Shown: one piece after another, positions 3,574 through 17,501 of the stretch
Layout of the letters: the number at the start of each line of letters is the position of its first letter
Position numbering within the stretch: position 1 is the stretch's first letter
From: an uncultured virus (IMG/VR IMGVR_UViG_3300025126_000012)
Lineage: Duplodnaviria; Heunggongvirae; Uroviricota; Caudoviricetes
Strand: one strand, 5' to 3'
Virus record (IMG/VR): IMGVR_UViG_3300025126_000012
DNA: 20,000 nt
The notes under the pieces: model-generated
The model's database searches: none
What the model was told of the DNA's origin: nothing
The model's input: only the letters and a program-made list of their open reading frames with translations
Made by a program: the position numbers and the translations under genes

Positions 3574-3872
3574 TGACTAAAATTCATGGCAGATATACAA
3601 AATTTGATACTGCAACATTAGATGATTTTATTGAGTCTAATATAGATGCAGCTCAAGTAAAAACAGAATGGGTAGGTATGCCAGAATTCAATCAGCATAA
3701 TATCGATTCTTTTGCTACTATTGTTTTTAGAGTAGTGGATGAAGAACATCTAAAAAAACTATCAGAATTGGTTGGTCAGCCATTGACACATAAAACAAAA
3801 ACGGTATGGTATCCTAAACAGGGAGTTTTACCAGAACGTAGGGCATTTTATGTAGATGAGGATGATGTATGA
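3573..3872 (+). CDS. Small hypothetical protein translationally coupled to the glycosyltransferase
   Basis: About 100 aa ORF with EWVGMPEF and KTVWYP; overlaps both neighbours by 1-4 nt. Confidence 0.75.
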   Translation: MTKIHGRYTKFDTATLDDFIESNIDAAQVKTEWVGMPEFNQHNIDSFATIVFRVVDEEHLKKLSELVGQPLTHKTKTVWYPKQGVLPERRAFYVDEDDV

Positions 3873-4822
3873 TTGACGAACACATGCCACAATACCCACT
3901 CTACATTGTGTCAAAAGGAAGAGCTGATAGTCGATTTACTTCCAAAACGCTAGAAGCAATGCATGTGCCATATTATATTGTCGTAGAAAAACAAGAAGTA
4001 GATATATATGAGGCAGCAATAAATCCTAAATATGGTACAGTTTTAGAACTCGACAAGAAATTTCAAGATGAATATGACACATTTGATGATTTAGGATACA
4101 CTAAGAGTAAGGGGCCAGGTCCTGCTAGAAATTTTGTATGGGAACATGCAAAATCGAATGGATTTAAACGTCACTGGGTCATGGATGATAACATCAATGG
4201 ATTTTATCGATTCAATAATAACTCTAGGATAGTGTGTCTGAGTGGAGCATTATTCCGGGCAATGGAAGATTTTAATGATAGATATACTAATCTGCCTATG
4301 TGTGGGCCTAATTATTTTTCTTTTGCTGTTCCTTGTGGCAAAAAAAATCCACCGATTATTATGAATACTCGCATTTATTCCTGTAATCTGATTGAATGCG
4401 GTACCCCTTATAGATGGAGAGGTCGTTATAACGAAGATACTGATATTTCACTTAGGATGCTGAAAGACGGCTTGTGCACTGTACAATTTAATGCATTCTT
4501 ACAGGGCAAAATCGTAACACAGGCAGTGAAAGGTGGGAATACAGCAGAATTTTATGCAAAAGAAGGAACTACACCAAAATCTCAAATGCTTTTTGATATG
4601 CACCCAGATGTTACTAGATTGGTCACGAAATATGATAGGCCTCATCATCATGTAGATTATAATGTATTTAAGAAAAATAGATTACAACGTATCCCTGATA
4701 TTATTATACCAAATAAGATAAATGAGTATGGCATGGTTTGTGTGAAAAGAGAAGAGTTAAAAGAAGAGCGCAAAGACGATTTTATAACAAAGATGGTGAA
4801 AAACCAAAAAAAGGAAATTTAA
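3869..4822 (+). CDS. GT-A fold glycosyltransferase, TET-associated (TAGT)/GREB1-like, putative DNA base modification
   Basis: YPLYIVSKGRA, GPARN, WVMDDNI (metal-binding acidic motif), GRYNEDTDISLRML, KGGNT. Confidence 0.75.
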   Translation: MIDEHMPQYPLYIVSKGRADSRFTSKTLEAMHVPYYIVVEKQEVDIYEAAINPKYGTVLELDKKFQDEYDTFDDLGYTKSKGPGPARNFVWEHAKSNGFKRHWVMDDNINGFYRFNNNSRIVCLSGALFRAMEDFNDRYTNLPMCGPNYFSFAVPCGKKNPPIIMNTRIYSCNLIECGTPYRWRGRYNEDTDISLRMLKDGLCTVQFNAFLQGKIVTQAVKGGNTAEFYAKEGTTPKSQMLFDMHPDVTRLVTKYDRPHHHVDYNVFKKNRLQRIPDIIIPNKINEYGMVCVKREELKEERKDDFITKMVKNQKKEI

Positions 4823-8075: not shown

Positions 8076-9188
8076 ATGACAAATTTGAAAAAAATATCTG
8101 ATATTGTGCTGAATAAACGATGGGCAGAGTTCACTGAACTCGGCATTGACATGAAGCATTATGAAGATTTGGGTATGGTTCTTTTGAACTATAATCAAAT
8201 CGAAGCAATCAAGAATCATCCAATAGTAAATCTTTGCCGAGGATTGCTAATTGGATATGACGGTTCTATTATTCGCAATGGCATGCCGCGTTTTTACAAT
8301 TTGGGTGAGAATGGGGTCGACACATTCGACTTTCAAAATTCAATCACATTTGAGAAAGCCGACGGCTCACTCATGTTTACGTACTTTTGCCTCCCAACAG
8401 GGAAGTGGGAAATCGGTACTCGCGGAACTGCTTTTGCAGAAGGACCGAAAGAATTCTTCGGGACATTCCGAGATTTTATGCTATCAGCTATGGGCCGAAC
8501 AGAAGCAGAATTTCAAGAAGACTGCACGGAATTGCTGAACAAGGAATACACATACTTGTTCGAGTGTATCGGGAAAGATAATCGCATAGTAACTCCGTAT
8601 GGAGAAAATATGCTGGTATTTCTATCTAGTGTAGAAAATGCAACCGGCAATGAATATCTTATTGGTAATCAGGAAGTACATAACGCTTTGCTTAATTGGA
8701 ATGTCCGACCTGTTGAGGTGTTTTCATTTAATACTCAAGATGATTGTCTCAAAGTGCTTGGTGAATTGACTGGACTCAAGGAAGGGTTTGTTGTATATAA
8801 CACAAAAACAAAAACACGTGTTAAAATAAAGTCGCCTACATATCTTGCAATCCATCGCCTCCGTGGCAATGGTTTGACTTTGAATTCAGTATGTGAACTT
8901 ATCGTCACGCGCGAAGTGGATGAATACTTAGCTACGTTTCCTGAAGATACACATAAGTTCAATGAAGCACAATCAATGTATGCAGTTATACAAAATGAAC
9001 TCACAGATAATTATTGTAAATTCAAGACCATTGAATCACAAAAGGACTTTGCTATTGCGATTAAGGACTTGCCTTTAAGTTGCGTAATGTTTAAGGCCCG
9101 CAGCGCAAATGTTAATGACGTGTTACATGAATTCAATAAGTTTCCAGTTAACAAAAGAGCAGAATGGCTAAAGACTAGATTGACTTAG
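8076..9188 (+). CDS. rnlA: T4 RNA ligase 1-like (RnlA)
   Basis: CRGL, PRFYN, motif I EKADGS, TRG, TYLFE, motif IV EGFVV, motif V RVKIKS. Confidence 0.9.
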   Translation: MTNLKKISDIVLNKRWAEFTELGIDMKHYEDLGMVLLNYNQIEAIKNHPIVNLCRGLLIGYDGSIIRNGMPRFYNLGENGVDTFDFQNSITFEKADGSLMFTYFCLPTGKWEIGTRGTAFAEGPKEFFGTFRDFMLSAMGRTEAEFQEDCTELLNKEYTYLFECIGKDNRIVTPYGENMLVFLSSVENATGNEYLIGNQEVHNALLNWNVRPVEVFSFNTQDDCLKVLGELTGLKEGFVVYNTKTKTRVKIKSPTYLAIHRLRGNGLTLNSVCELIVTREVDEYLATFPEDTHKFNEAQSMYAVIQNELTDNYCKFKTIESQKDFAIAIKDLPLSCVMFKARSANVNDVLHEFNKFPVNKRAEWLKTRLT

Positions 9189-9540: not shown

Positions 9541-9575
9541 GATTATATCGATAAATGTGGTACGAGGAGAAATAC

Positions 9576-10469
9576 GTGAAAAGGGCTATTATTGCAATTG
9601 GTATTTCGGGGTCGGGCAAAACCACCGAAATTGCAAAGCGGGAATATGATTACTTCGTTAGAATTGAACGTGATATTATGCGCAAGCGCCTGCTTGGATT
9701 TGATGATGATAATTCTAGCGATAACTTCTGGTCCCTCTGGAAATTCACAAAAGAAAATGAAAACAAAGTCACTGAAATGGTGAATGAAATAATTGATGAC
9801 TGCGCAAAGATGAAAGCAAACATCATTATTGGTGATACGAATTTGAATATTAAATATCGGTCACTGCTGCATACAAAACTTGAAGAACTTGGATATACTG
9901 TTGAGTTCAAAGTCTTCCATATTGATGTGATGGAAGCAATTAAGCGTGACGAGCGCCGCCGCGATACTGTCGGTCATCAGGTTATTTGGAAGCAGTATGA
10001 ACAATTTACTAAAGAATTTCCAAGTACTCGGCAGTATGTTGCAGACGTCACAAAACCAAGGGCTATCTTGGTTGATGTAGATGGAACATTGGCTCACATG
10101 AATGGTAAGCGCGGGGCGTTTGAATGGGATAAAGTCGGGCTGGATGATTGTGATGAACAAGTAAAGTTTTTGGTAAATAACATGCCAGTGGAAGATACTG
10201 TTATAATTCTTTCTGGGAGAGATGGCATCTGTAGACCAGAAACAGAAAAGTGGCTCGATTATAATGACATTTTTTTTGATACGTTACTCATGCGAGCAAC
10301 AGGTGATATGAGAAAAGATACAGTTGTGAAAGAGGAAATTTTCTGGAGAGATATTGCTCCGAATTACAATTGTCAATTCGTTATCGATGATAGGCCTAGC
10401 GTGTGTGATAACTGGAGAGCAATGGGGCTTAAAGTTTTTCAGGTTGGCAATCCTAACATCAGATTTTGA
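9576..10469 (+). CDS. pseT: Polynucleotide 5'-kinase/3'-phosphatase (T4 PseT/PNKP)
   Basis: P-loop GISGSGKTT, ERD..R, DTNLN; C-terminal HAD DVDGTLA, LSGR, RKDTVVK, IDDRPSV. GAGGAG RBS before GTG 9576. Confidence 0.93.
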   Translation: MKRAIIAIGISGSGKTTEIAKREYDYFVRIERDIMRKRLLGFDDDNSSDNFWSLWKFTKENENKVTEMVNEIIDDCAKMKANIIIGDTNLNIKYRSLLHTKLEELGYTVEFKVFHIDVMEAIKRDERRRDTVGHQVIWKQYEQFTKEFPSTRQYVADVTKPRAILVDVDGTLAHMNGKRGAFEWDKVGLDDCDEQVKFLVNNMPVEDTVIILSGRDGICRPETEKWLDYNDIFFDTLLMRATGDMRKDTVVKEEIFWRDIAPNYNCQFVIDDRPSVCDNWRAMGLKVFQVGNPNIRF

Positions 10470-10862: not shown

Positions 10863-11186
10863 ATGAACTATAATATTGAGTATGAAAAAAAGTCTTTCAT
10901 GAAAGCAATAGACTACATTAAAGAAAATAATCTCTATCGCAGAGGGGAGTCTAATTATGATTTGTGGTTAATTGATTTTATCAAAAGCACGGTAAAGAGT
11001 GCTATGCATAAGTATAAAAGCGCGGGGGTATGGTCTTCTTGGTCTTCGTGCGGCGGGGTAACACTTGTGTTAACGTCAGATAATAAAGCAACGGAAGGCT
11101 TCGATATAATTGATGTCAATATCACAGTTGAACCTAATTTTGAAAATAGTGATTATGTAACACTAAAAATTCGTGATGAAGCTTAA
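10863..11186 (+). CDS. Hypothetical protein
   Basis: GGAG RBS before ATG 10863. Confidence 0.7.
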   Translation: MNYNIEYEKKSFMKAIDYIKENNLYRRGESNYDLWLIDFIKSTVKSAMHKYKSAGVWSSWSSCGGVTLVLTSDNKATEGFDIIDVNITVEPNFENSDYVTLKIRDEA

Positions 11187-11243
11187 AAATGAGTCTAGAA
11201 TTAGAACAAAATAACAGGTATTACTTTTGATAAAGGGATTGAC

Positions 11244-11456
11244 ATGAATTTTATTATTACTACTCATGCGACATTTGAACATATTTACGAAATTGATGCC
11301 CCAAATGAAAATGCCGCTGTTGAGATTGTGACGAGAACAGATGCTCAATTGGATTATCATCAAAGATTTATTGGAGAAAAAGTAGTACACATCACACTTG
11401 CCCACAATTCTATTCCTATGACGCCAGATGAATTTAGAGCATTAGGTTGTTTTTGA
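11244..11456 (+). CDS. Hypothetical protein (70 aa)
   Basis: AAGGGA RBS; intact ORF. Confidence 0.6.
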   Translation: MNFIITTHATFEHIYEIDAPNENAAVEIVTRTDAQLDYHQRFIGEKVVHITLAHNSIPMTPDEFRALGCF

Positions 11457-11481
11457 TAATGCCAGATTAAAGGAGATTATT

Positions 11482-12174
11482 ATGCGAGTGGACATAGGAA
11501 AGTACAAGTATTATGTTGGGCCTTATCAGATAGCTGAAATGCTGATGTTTTGGATTCCTAAATACAATGATAAGCACGAATATACAAAAGCATACGATAA
11601 ATATGTTCATAGATTTGGTGAAATTTTAGCAGATACTCCGATAAACACTTTATGTGAATGGATTGATACTAAGCAGAAACGTAAAATCAAAGTTAAAATC
11701 CACGATTATGACACTTGGAGTATGGATTATACATTGGCATTGATTATTTTACCTATGCTTAAAAAGCTGAAAGAGACTAAACACGGCTCGGTCATAGTTG
11801 ATTTAGAAGATGTTCCACTACAGTATCGATATAGTGATGATTCAGAATATGAAAATGCTCAACGAGCATTTGACTTTTACAATGACGAAGATAGTGTCAA
11901 AATTGAGTGCGACCATCATGTACGATGGGACTGGGTACTCGATGAAATGATTTTTGCCTTTGAAATGATTTTAAACGATGGAAATTGGATGGATGCTTAT
12001 AAAACATCATATCCAATGACCGAAGAGGAATCAAAACATCAATCAGTATTAAATAAATTGTATTCTAAAAATGTTAAAATTGTTTATGATTGGGATAGTA
12101 TCGAAAAGGTAGAAAACAGAATAACAAACGGCCTCATTTTATTCGGCAAATATTATAGAGGATTATGGTCTTGA
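11482..12174 (+). CDS. Hypothetical phage protein (230 aa)
   Basis: AAGGAG RBS; YDTWSMDYTLA, WDWVLDEMIFAF, GLILFGKYYRGLW. Confidence 0.8.
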   Translation: MRVDIGKYKYYVGPYQIAEMLMFWIPKYNDKHEYTKAYDKYVHRFGEILADTPINTLCEWIDTKQKRKIKVKIHDYDTWSMDYTLALIILPMLKKLKETKHGSVIVDLEDVPLQYRYSDDSEYENAQRAFDFYNDEDSVKIECDHHVRWDWVLDEMIFAFEMILNDGNWMDAYKTSYPMTEEESKHQSVLNKLYSKNVKIVYDWDSIEKVENRITNGLILFGKYYRGLWS

Positions 12175-12213
12175 TGATGTGGGCTTTTGAGTTAAATCAA
12201 ATATGGAGCGCAG

Positions 12214-12678
12214 ATGTTAGACATACAAACTTTACGAAATGATTTGGAGGGCGTGGCCGCACGTTTGGCGACACGCGGATTTGTTTTGGATACCGCGAAA
12301 TTCGAGCAGCTGGAAGCCGAACGCAAAAGCATCCAGGCGCGCGCGCAGGAACTGCAAGCCAAGCGCAATGTCGCATCCAAGCTAATCGGTCAGGCGAAGG
12401 CCAATGGTGAAGAAACGACCGCTATCAAGGCCAAAGTGATAGCGGTGAATGATGAGTTGAAGCAACTAGAAGCCAGGCTGCCACAAGTGCTGGGAGATAT
12501 GGAGGCCTTCCTCGCCAATATCCCCAACCGGCCGCACCCCAACGTGCCCGAAGGGAAGTCGGAAGCAGATAACGTCGAGATGTATAAGATCGGCGAGCCG
12601 AAGAAATTCGATTTCGAGGTGCAGGACCATGTCAGCATCGGCGAGGACTTGGGCGGTATGGAGAAGATTTCCAAGTGA
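12214..12678 (+). CDS. serS: Host-derived seryl-tRNA synthetase remnant: N-terminal tRNA-binding coiled coil with the catalytic core deleted in frame
   Basis: MLDIQTLRND...RGF...LEAERKSIQ...LQAKRN.ASKLIGQAK...IPNRPHPNVPEGKSEADNVE...DHVSIGE, then GGMEKISK*. No class II motifs; markedly GC-richer than the flanks. Confidence 0.9.
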   Translation: MLDIQTLRNDLEGVAARLATRGFVLDTAKFEQLEAERKSIQARAQELQAKRNVASKLIGQAKANGEETTAIKAKVIAVNDELKQLEARLPQVLGDMEAFLANIPNRPHPNVPEGKSEADNVEMYKIGEPKKFDFEVQDHVSIGEDLGGMEKISK

Positions 12679-13208
12679 GCCTCATCCATCTGCTCGCCAC
12701 CACCGGCCACAGACTGACGTGGCCTCTAAAGATCGTAATGTGTTTATTGATATTATCAAACACCTCCTTAGCAGATAAGCTCGTAATACCACCAGAGTAT
12801 GTGATAAAATATTCAGCGAAAATGGCTTATAAAGATTTTCCAAAACAAGCAGATATTTTGGCAATAATCAGAGTAGAGTCAGCATTCAATCCGAAGGCAT
12901 TCAATCCAGAGAAGAGCAAGATAAATCCTAACAGGAAAATACCCCCCTCTATTGGACTTATGCAGGTGCAGAATGGCACGTTCAATCCGAAGCATAACAT
13001 GAAGCAAGGAACTTCTCTACTTAGAGAGTATTACGTAAAGTATTGCAATCGTAGCATTGAGTGCGCCGTAAAAAGTTATAACATCGGTCCACGAAATTTT
13101 AAACACGGGAAATTAAAAAAATCTGGAGCAATCTATTTCAATAAATACCAATATCATCGAGCGAGATACGACAAATTTGTTGAAAAGTTGACAACCCACG
13201 TTAATTAA
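12675..13208 (+). CDS. Lytic transglycosylase (SLT domain) with hydrophobic N-terminal segment
   Basis: IIRVESAFNPKA (catalytic Glu), GLMQV, SYNIG motifs. The start is uncertain (GTG 12675 or an internal ATG). Confidence 0.85.
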   Translation: MSLIHLLATTGHRLTWPLKIVMCLLILSNTSLADKLVIPPEYVIKYSAKMAYKDFPKQADILAIIRVESAFNPKAFNPEKSKINPNRKIPPSIGLMQVQNGTFNPKHNMKQGTSLLREYYVKYCNRSIECAVKSYNIGPRNFKHGKLKKSGAIYFNKYQYHRARYDKFVEKLTTHVN

Positions 13209-13245
13209 TCTATGATGGATTTTTAGAACTCAATTGGAGTAATGT

Positions 13246-13512
13246 ATGAATGTTGTTGTAATTAAGACATTAGGCGGTGAAGAGATTCTGGCAGAACTCG
13301 AATCAATATCATCAGAAGGTGATTATACCGTTACTAGACCTAGGATACTAATGGTTTCTGGCCAAAACATTGGATTAGTGCCTTATCTCATTAGTGTACC
13401 TGATGCTAATAACATCAGAATAAAAGCACATTCTATTGTAACAGCGGTGGATGCTCCGCATGAAATCGCGAATCAATATATCAAAACTGTAACAACTTTG
13501 ATACTGGGGTAA
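13246..13512 (+). CDS. Hypothetical protein (88 aa), possibly small beta-barrel/Sm-like
   Basis: GGAG RBS; VVVIKTLGGEEILAEL...IGLVPY pattern. Confidence 0.75.
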   Translation: MNVVVIKTLGGEEILAELESISSEGDYTVTRPRILMVSGQNIGLVPYLISVPDANNIRIKAHSIVTAVDAPHEIANQYIKTVTTLILG

Positions 13513-13540
13513 ACGTAAGCATGAGTACTTTTATTGTTTA

Positions 13541-13568
13541 CTTTGACATCCTCGCGAGGTTGTCAAAG
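13541..13568. terminator. Hairpin, possible terminator or processing stem
   Basis: CTTTGACA.CCT-CGCG-AGG.TGTCAAAG inverted repeat after the last CDS; no clean U-tract. Confidence 0.4.
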
Positions 13569-13571
13569 GGG

Positions 13572-13823
13572 TAAATTGTTGTTTTTATTAGACATTTGAC
13601 AATTAATTAAAAATCTATATAATTGATTATGTCGATTTAAATGTTTTGGTGAATCAATTTGTTTCATAATGAATTGGATGAAATTTCGCCAAATCATTGA
13701 TTGATAAATAAATTTGACAATTAAATCGAAACTTGATATGATTGTTAGGTGGTTGTGAAACAGGCAACACTGAAAGGTGTAAATCTTTCACCATTTGACA
13801 ATTAAATCGAAACTTGATATGAT
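13572..13823 (+). promoter_or_regulatory. Three tandem sigma70 promoters driving the RNA island; two lie in a 41-bp direct repeat
   Basis: TTGACA at 13596 (TATAAT 13618), 13714 and 13795 (both followed by TATGAT). ATTTGACAATTAAATCGAAACTTGATATGATTGTTAGGTGG occurs at 13712-13752 and 13793-13833. Confidence 0.8.
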
Positions 13824-13834
13824 TGTTAGGTGGA

Positions 13835-14250
13835 ATTCAATGACACATAATATCGTGTTAGCAAACAGGAATGGAACGTGGCTGCGAGGACCTGTTTAAA
13901 AACCTCTACGGGCGGATTCGGGGATGAATGGGAAACTGAAAAATCCGAATATTGGACATTCAATAGATGTTCAATCAAAAAAATTATGCATATTAATATA
14001 TTAATATGTTAAGACCGTTGTTGGATACGGAGAGATTGATACAAAGTATATGGGTTCGATTCCCTTTATGAAACTGTTAACGCAGATGGCATATACAGGT
14101 GTTCCAGAATTAAAAGGTTGGTAATCGACGTGGTGAGCAAAGCCAACATTATTTGATTGAACTTTATTGAGTGTGCTTTATTAAGATTTTCAATGAAAAG
14201 GTTGCAGATGTAAACATCATTGGTCAAGAAATCTTAATTAAGCACATTTT
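13835..14250 (+). ncRNA. Candidate structured ncRNA(s) upstream of the tRNA array
   Basis: No ORF; long stems 13956-13979/14152-14174 and 14172-14190/14229-14246; internal T-loop hairpin GGG-TTCGATT-CCC. Confidence 0.55.
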
Positions 14251-15752: not shown

Positions 15753-15830
15753 GGTGAGTATAGCTTAATCAGTAAAGCCTCTGGCTGTGAATCAGGGAGT
15801 CCTGCGAATGCAAGTCTCGTTGCTCCCCCA
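15753..15830 (+). tRNA. tRNA-His(GTG), degenerate T-arm
   Basis: Extra 5' G, TAGCTTAA, TCTGG-CTGTGAA-TCAGG, ends CCCA. Confidence 0.75.
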
Positions 15831-17408: not shown

Positions 17409-17501
17409 GGAAGAGCAAACCGACTGGCGACGGTACCTGTCTTGAAAACAGTTGAGGTAATGACCTTACCCTTGGGGGTTCGACTCCGCCCTCTTCCGCC
17501 A
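17409..17501 (+). tRNA. tRNA-Ser(TGA)
   Basis: GGAAGAG/CTCTTCC-GCCA, CTGT-CTTGAAA-ACAG, long variable arm. Confidence 0.9.

Follow-up and report, generated by a model that had tools for sequence, protein, structure and literature searches.

We analysed a window of 20,000 nucleotides (nt) from the IMG/VR record IMGVR_UViG_3300025126_000012 (Caudoviricetes), a virus record of 98.7 kb that is 57% complete, and found in it the beginning and the last codons of a bacterial serS gene, which encodes seryl-tRNA synthetase (SerRS). Host codons 149-425 are missing between the two parts and the reading frame is kept, so that a captured serS with its catalytic domain deleted in frame, as proposed in a preliminary description of this DNA, is indeed present. 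What is left is an open reading frame (ORF) for the SerRS arm, hereafter the arm gene. Judged from its sequence, the locus is a real and unusually clean case in which a phage captured and trimmed a host gene, and it bears statistical signs of constraint. We put the probability that the arm is a retained, non-catalytic binder of transfer RNAs (tRNAs) with long variable arms at roughly one half. The parts of the locus are as follows (positions in the window).

12204-12213 (+): host-derived 5' leader with the serS Shine-Dalgarno sequence GGAG (12205-12208); left border of the captured DNA, from the alignment to the host locus L008
12214-12678 (+): stand-alone SerRS arm ORF of 154 amino acids (aa); host codons 1-148, then 426-431, then stop
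12214-12534 (+): Seryl_tRNA_N antiparallel coiled-coil tRNA-binding arm, residues 1-107 (Pfam PF02403)
12535-12657 (+): leftover beginning of the class II catalytic domain, residues 108-148, aligning with host residues 108-148
12650-12656 (+): TGGGCGG microhomology, junction of the 831-nt in-frame deletion, from comparison of the host N side and C side
12675-12696 (+): next host gene, GTG start (GTGA overlap with the serS stop) and codons 2-7; recognisable host DNA ends here
12697-12737 (+): GC-rich filler, 41 nt, between the host piece and the phage SLT gene
12738-13208 (+): phage SLT-domain (lytic transglycosylase) gene, GC 0.37 and phage-like, from Pfam and composition

The arm protein ends in ...DHVSIGEDLGG-MEKISK-stop. 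Its residues 1-107 match the full Seryl_tRNA_N profile (positions 1-108 of 108) with an E-value of 1.7e-29 and 102.7 bits, against a cut-off of 28.2, and SerRS chains in the PDB cover residues 1-149/150 (e.g. 6hdz_A, E 9.4e-39). The class II core (tRNA-synt_2b, PF00587) gave no Pfam match in the arm protein, and host residues 149-425 are absent in the alignment. The product belongs with the Seryl_tRNA_N domain proteins and its gene is a fragment captured from a host; it is not a SerRS enzyme and cannot activate serine or charge tRNA. The GC-rich island that had been noted earlier is clear in the composition, with a GC content of 0.577 at 12250-12549 and 0.543 at 12400-12699 compared to 0.31-0.36 in the flanks. 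The mean of the 98.7-kb record is 0.366, and the island is its joint highest-GC 300-nt stretch, tied with the last 1.2 kb of the record. An antisense ORF at 12390-12710 had no family match.

Among 2,613 proteins found by a protein search at an E-value of at most 0.001, the nearest full-length relatives of the arm are 431-aa SerRS of Gallionellaceae, Sideroxydans and Sideroxyarcus, with 81% identity over residues 1-150. For the Gallionellaceae/Sideroxydans donor lineage (e.g. L008 and P0121-P0128), identity is 81% at the protein level over residues 1-148 and 83% at the nucleotide level. In an alignment with 10 hosts the phage protein follows them to residue 148, where the hosts read ...GEGLGG and continue with LDFE; the preliminary estimate of SerRS residues ~1-146 was thus right in the N-terminal match and two residues short, as the homology extends through 148. 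The best host locus, L008, is 83.2% identical to the phage at the nucleotide level across 12204-12656 without gaps (blastn).

The deleted segment comprises host codons 149-425, 831 nt, in frame. On the N side hosts carry TTGGGCGG followed by GCTCGAT, at codon 148, and on the C side ATGGGCGG followed by (A/C/T)(C/A)TGGA, ahead of the last six codons. The 7-nt TGGGCGG occurs at both host sites and a single time in the phage, at 12650-12656, where it is followed by the tail and the same TGA. Host proteins end in ...PYMGG(M/L)EKLSK-stop (PYMGGMEKLSK in six of the 10 aligned hosts), compared to GGMEKISK in the phage. Both parts of the earlier proposal, that GGMEKISK is the native serS C-terminus and that it was joined at a TGGGCGG microhomology, are borne out by these comparisons. 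Upstream, host identity begins at 12204 and includes GGAG, the ribosome-binding site (RBS) of serS, the host upstream regions reading ..tggag(t/c)gcag before the ATG; the retention of RBS, frame and stop, also claimed before, is therefore found in the phage copy. Downstream, 12679-12696 repeat the beginning of the next host gene, with 12682-12696 identical to L008 at 15/15 positions. That gene starts with a GTG overlapping the serS stop and encodes an Ion_trans_2 ion channel (Pfam, E 1.1e-15). The host-derived stretch in all spans 12204-12696 and consists of the serS RBS, codons 1-148, the last six codons with the stop, and 18 nt of the next gene. These 18 nt, the mosaic divergence and the Rnl1/PNKP neighbours described below go beyond the preliminary description. 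The GC content remains at 0.59 over 12679-12737; the filler 12697-12737 had no match in 80 host loci, nor in five whole host genomes (at most 3 mismatches), and its predicted RNA fold is insignificant (z -0.51).

A maximum-likelihood tree built from 75 sequences (444 nt) places the phage copy inside the Gallionellaceae as sister to L008, with a terminal branch of 0.35 compared to a host median of 0.18. Island GC is 0.54 and GC at third codon positions (GC3) 0.66, compared to 0.365 and 0.33 in phage genes, while GC3 is 0.69 on average in hosts and 0.80 in L008. No closer donor DNA, above 83% nucleotide identity overall, was found among 146 host sequences from genomes and metagenome contigs. The host alignments at the protein and DNA level and the nested tree support the microhomology-deletion model and the earlier guess of a betaproteobacterial source, and we regard a Gallionellaceae serS capture with a microhomology-bounded in-frame deletion as very nearly certain. 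Compared to the Gallionellaceae enzyme, the phage arm lacks codons 149-425 with motifs 1-3 and the dimer interface, has about 20 residues that are absent from close hosts, and sits in a phage genome of 36.6% GC; it shares with it the RBS, the C-terminal hexapeptide (MEKLSK in hosts, MEKISK in the phage) and the overlap of stop and next start.

The junctions are real and the arm gene belongs to the phage genome. Six IMG/VR contigs, four spanning the island and two cut within it, match the window at 100% identity for as much as 10,462 nt, and the four spanning contigs stem from different metagenomes. The stretch was also found, with 0.89-1.00 of sampled words, in 22 DNA runs of 2017 and 2025 that come from aquifer, from groundwater and from one hot-spring study; 16 of these runs were flagged as possible sources. 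Logan contigs of two runs, X8 and X18, show 0 differences where they cross the left and right borders of the captured DNA and the deletion junction between them. An assembly chimera of phage and host reads could be suspected from contig ends inside the island, at 12326 and 12369 in the two cut IMG/VR contigs and at 12317/12318 in X8. These breaks fall where host and phage share exact words, so that the assembly graph branches there: a host-type contig of X18, with a depth of 28.5 against ~4.9 for the phage, is identical to 12204-12316 over 113 nt. The same contig departs from the phage just before 12204, where its 25 nt equal the L008 serS upstream sequence at 24/25 positions, and other host-type contigs of X18 diverge behind 12644 and 12656, into host LDFETATK sequence. 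With identical spanning contigs and every junction bridged, a chimera, which the preliminary description had asked to check, is ruled out as far as contigs can show, and we consider it exceedingly improbable.

The divergence of the captured gene was analysed over 148 codons, with 74 of the 80 host loci aligned without gaps. Between phage and L008 the synonymous distance (dS) is 0.62 and the nonsynonymous distance (dN) 0.10, giving a ratio (omega) of 0.17. Three-taxon distances assign to the phage branch a dS of 0.47-0.70, a dN of 0.089-0.100 and an omega of 0.13-0.20, compared to an omega of 0.03-0.08 between hosts. The 76 nucleotide differences from L008 across 444 nt include no stops and no gaps, and no insertion or deletion (indel) is present in 462 nt. 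When 76 random substitutions were simulated from the observed spectrum, 43.6 residues changed on average, compared to 26 observed, and the frame stayed open in 11.5% of 1,500 trials. All invariant positions of the family are kept, 26/26 in an alignment of 24 diverse SerRS N-termini (A3) and 38/38 in another alignment (A2). The 26 changed residues miss every one of them (hypergeometric p 0.0038 for the set of 26 and 0.00019 for the set of 38), and for codons 39-148 alone the avoidance has a p of 0.005-0.01. At G76I and V102N all three bases differ from invariant host codons, and five further codons differ at two bases; two or more such triple-hit codons have a probability of 0.0007 under 35 neutral hits, which correspond to ~22 residue changes. 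These conservation statistics argue against plain neutral decay. The differences from L008 run from GC to AT at a ratio of 43:14, and 28:6 at third positions; this bias, and a GC3 of 0.66 that lies between those of L008 and of the phage, point to time spent in the phage.

The divergence is not evenly spread. Residues 1-38 are identical to four host proteins (P0121-P0124), and the first 113 nt (12204-12316) equal the co-occurring host allele in X18. In codons 39-126 dN is 0.142, compared to 0.015-0.046 between hosts, while dS to L008 is 0.58, compared to 0.44-0.96 between hosts. Twenty-two residues differ from all 12 closest hosts, 16 of them being absent from all 74 hosts; two of the 22 (E12 and V24) are accounted for by the P0121 type, and the remaining ~20 cluster in codons 39-126. 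Such a mosaic fits an old capture whose 5' end was lately exchanged with the serS of a current host, by homology-anchored recombination in the island, and it also fits a recent capture followed by fast protein change. Among the phage-only changes, V102N, V106R and V113E replace valines of the linker that adjoined the lost core by N, R and E, whereas changes in the helix core are conservative (T44A, S54A, L78V) and no proline was gained in the helices. This pattern is possibly the expected look of a fragment that lost its core and was resurfaced. Targeted mutagenesis of the arm by a diversity-generating retroelement (DGR) was considered and rejected, as no RVT_1 was found in the 57%-complete record and no second copy of the island that could be a template; differences are rarest at host adenines (0.08-0.13 per A), contrary to DGR targeting.

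The GGAG of the arm gene lies at the usual distance from the start and is on a par with the best RBS sites of the phage. The gene is within a block of phage genes that share its strand, and its immediate surroundings contain neither a promoter-like nor a terminator-like site. Contigs from two metatranscriptomes match the phage-specific middle part with 0 differences, at 12312-12576 in X23 and 12344-12571 in X24, and 12221-12311 is not covered by contigs of RNA runs. These matches are compatible with transcription of the arm gene. The SLT frame (12675-13208) is open back to the host-derived GTG at 12675 that overlaps the arm stop, and the SLT protein might begin there, with 21 extra residues and translational coupling, and not at the ATG at 12738.

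We searched for the same arrangement elsewhere. A scan of IMG/VR for two peptide patterns found no other arm-only SerRS, as all 13 other loci with a relative encode full-length proteins of 427-438 aa; these loci lie mostly at contig ends and have host-like GC. No arm-only SerRS was seen in the two inspected of 106 matching GenBank phage records, one of which is the full-length SerRS (435 aa) of the Brevundimonas jumbo phage vB_BpoS-Domovoi. The other (Acinetobacter MD-2021a) was rejected, being a host chromosome filed as phage. In bacteria the MEK(I/L)SK tail was present in none of the 15 inspected among 119 other listed homologues of near length; the 15 either end no later than the junction or continue into the catalytic domain, like partial genes at contig ends. 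No related phage with an empty site was found: a relative of the upstream gene (31-44% identity) is present at 75 IMG/VR loci, which have no other neighbour in common with this phage. The SLT protein had no relatives outside this phage in our searches, megablast of 11000-14000 against phages returned no match, and no paper on an arm-only SerRS was found in open-access papers and bioRxiv full text.

The reading that we favour is as follows. A T4-like phage of iron-oxidising Gallionellaceae very probably acquired host serS via illegitimate recombination, taking up the DNA between 10 nt ahead of the start codon and 18 nt beyond the stop, and recombination or template switching at TGGGCGG deleted codons 149-425 in frame, at capture or later. 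The gene would be read from the host RBS inside the phage gene block, and its predicted product would be the full SerRS coiled-coil arm with 41 leftover residues of the catalytic domain and the native six-residue tail. Selection may then have retained the arm as a free protein that grips long-variable-arm tRNAs, namely host and phage tRNA-Ser and possibly an odd 93-nt tRNA of the phage, and it would act beside the neighbouring Rnl1/PNKP tRNA repair genes and the tRNA array; protecting or holding long-arm tRNAs during infection, or tuning serylation, are plausible roles. The origin, the anatomy, the junctions and the non-random conservation are demonstrated, and translation, folding, tRNA binding and a benefit to the phage are what we infer. 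In the enzyme, according to passages of PMC4666401, the coiled coil touches the long variable arm and the D and T loops, mainly via their backbone and across the dimer, and acts jointly with the partner subunit's active site.

Several points weigh against this reading. As the enzyme shares binding with the other subunit's active site (passages of PMC4666401), a free arm may bind tRNA weakly. All phage copies are identical across contigs, which leaves no dN/dS within the phage and makes hosts the sole comparison, and part of the long phage branch may have accrued in a host lineage that was not sampled. The dS of codons 39-126 does not exceed that between hosts while dN is raised, so that a brief period with omega near 1 could account for the excess. 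The 41 leftover catalytic-domain residues keep their invariant positions too, which a function of the arm alone leaves unexplained. An in-frame outcome of a deletion is a 1-in-3 chance, the contigs of RNA libraries may derive from carried-over DNA, and the searches of phage data gave no further, independently arisen arm-only SerRS that would show recurrence.

An inert remnant is a serious alternative, though in our view less likely than a retained tRNA binder: a scrap of host DNA from illegitimate recombination or break repair that is in frame by chance, unselected and so far undecayed. The patchwork of serS 5' part, serS 3' end, 18 nt of the next gene and 41 GC-rich nt that match nothing searched resembles error-prone joining, and the deletion is off the domain boundary, leaving the 41 catalytic-domain residues behind. 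GC3 still stands at 0.66 against 0.33 in phage genes, and the 113 nt shared with a co-occurring host allele may point to an exchange not long ago; the excess in codons 39-126 would agree with an omega near 1 over a brief time, 35 neutral hits left the frame open in 34.5% of trials, and the arrangement did not recur in the other phages examined. What speaks against an unselected scrap is that the 26 changed residues all lie outside the 26 (or 38) family-invariant positions, that two triple-hit codons have a p of 0.0007 at 35 hits, and that 462 nt hold no indel. The branch omega of 0.13-0.20 and the GC-to-AT bias, which implies residence in the phage, point the same way, as does the identical sequence in all 22 DNA runs from aquifer, groundwater and hot spring in 2017 and 2025.

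The same conservation would be expected if the free arm were a competitive inhibitor of host serylation, a means of host takeover that soaks up host tRNA-Ser (and tRNA-Sec), lowers charging, and slows translation or triggers stress. A fragment without catalytic domain and dimer interface could act only through tRNA, and the arm reads the variable arm independently of the anticodon (passages of PMC4666401). Since the phage itself needs serylated tRNA, and its two tRNA-Ser genes depend on the host SerRS, we consider such an inhibitor improbable. A role outside tRNA, in which the coiled coil might for example be a structural scaffold, or engage a host defence or sensor protein as its decoy or partner, appears to us slightly more doubtful still. 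The ~20 phage-only residues clustered in codons 42-126 could reflect a new partner, and proteins annotated as Seryl_tRNA_N are accessory to type XI-like retrons at 10 loci, as listed in part of PMC13712802; those matches may be generic coiled-coil matches, and no partner is known. All family-invariant positions are kept, and in helix 1 they recur every 3-4 residues, which we read as a probable polar stripe facing the tRNA, contrary to a role apart from tRNA.

Within the preferred reading of a retained tRNA binder, a more specific version is that the arm guards tRNAs as a catalytically dead, synthetase-derived clamp, resurfaced to live without its core. It would shield long-arm tRNAs (host and phage tRNA-Ser and the 93-nt tRNA-Sec-like UGA tRNA) from host defences that cleave or deplete tRNA, or pass them to Rnl1/PNKP, and would be kept matched to the host tRNA pool by ongoing serS recombination, as in the 113-nt tract. 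We think this unlikely as a whole.

Phage genomes are known to contain tRNAs and tRNA repair enzymes, and the large ones whole synthetases as well. Reducing a synthetase to the arm that recognises tRNA would be another strategy, in which recognition is kept and catalysis given up. Gene g121 of Citromicrobium phage RXM is reported as SerRS in a passage of PMC8953757. The Domovoi protein and PHROG phrog_16140 (profile of 426) are likewise host-type translation genes in large phages; the first is whole and the profile of the second is full length, so that they are presumably active enzymes, unlike the arm-only copy. PylSn of the split bacterial PylRS, Trbp111 and Arc1p-type domains are stand-alone tRNA-binding proteins derived from synthetases. 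The arm resembles these nearest functional analogues as a small non-catalytic free module, presumably tRNA-binding, that is homologous to an appended synthetase domain. It differs in that they have other folds, bind other tRNAs and form old cellular families, while the arm is a recent phage capture; to our knowledge, SerRS has no arm-derived equivalent of PylSn or Trbp111. Amino acid:carrier-protein ligases, truncated SerRS homologues without the arm, also kept one module, but the opposite half, with catalysis kept and tRNA binding lost. A SerRS chain of 368 residues in the PDB, 9qof_A, matches the arm query over residues 94-150 only.

If the arm binds tRNA, it would be a naturally minimised and specific handle for type II (long-arm) tRNAs and an extra player in the contest between phage and host over tRNA pools. 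Whatever its function, the locus is a clean, datable record of a phage acquiring and trimming host DNA, with microhomology joins and possibly a later homology-anchored exchange. It also ties a T4-like phage of 36.6% GC, so far seen in metagenomes only, to Gallionellaceae iron oxidisers, whose serS N-terminal parts have a mean GC of 58%; we know of few phages for this family.

The phage is T4-like, and its gp41-type helicase shares 53% identity with its counterpart in Methylophilales phage Melnitz and ~50% with cyanophage gp41. Upstream of the arm gene the window contains two genes of tRNA repair.

8076-9185 (+): T4-type RNA ligase 1 (Rnl1)
9555-10466 (+): polynucleotide kinase/phosphatase (PNKP)

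A gap of 370 nt, which holds one 95-aa ORF, separates the two; they share a strand and form a tRNA-repair pair. Downstream of the arm, from 14422, ARAGORN called 13 tRNA genes, interspersed with homing and HNH endonuclease genes; among them are the two Ser and two Leu tRNAs that had been mentioned before. Rnl1, PNKP and the array are all less than 6 kb from the arm gene and on its strand. In T4 the ligase and kinase (Rnl1 and Pnk) mend tRNA that was cut by a host anticodon nuclease. We know of no SerRS-derived component in that system, and the arm is linked to it and to phage tRNA arrays by neighbourhood only.

A tRNA of 93 nt with an encoded CCA, at 17409-17501 (+), was called tRNA-Ser (anticodon TGA) by ARAGORN and scores 47.4 bits (cut-off 47) on the Rfam tRNA-Sec model, with a 6-pair D stem and a long variable arm in the model consensus; a free SerRS arm might have it as a client. 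The segment 18073-18362 (+), where the array ends, matches the Rfam model of permuted (two-piece) transfer-messenger RNA (tmRNA) with 82.2 bits against a cut-off of 47, and looks like a phage-encoded tmRNA. A further weak Rfam tRNA match at 15754-15828 (+), with 32.9 bits, was not called by ARAGORN. Within the array, a 138-aa ORF at 16966-17379 matches only the C-terminal TNB domain of TnpB/Cas12f-like proteins and is a fragment. Upstream of the array an exact 41-nt direct repeat is present (13712-13752 and 13793-13833), each copy of which bears a promoter-like site close to consensus (TTGACA, 17 nt, TATGAT, extended by TG); other strong promoter-like sites are found at 13188-13216 and 13596-13623.

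A relationship between the phage SLT gene and a host SLT gene that lies ~0.8 kb past serS in L008 (3250-4116, minus strand) was considered and rejected, as the two have no similarity beyond the family, and we take the proximity to be a coincidence. A TET-associated glycosyltransferase at 3869-4819 (PF20691, E 2.9e-43) suggests that the phage DNA is hypermodified. Beyond the window, a second GC-rich stretch (up to 0.57) closes the record at 97501-98700. It spans the C-terminal part of a tail-fibre-like open frame of 486 aa (frames of at least 70 aa were considered) and a small downstream ORF, and may be a host-range module exchanged with phages or prophages of higher GC.

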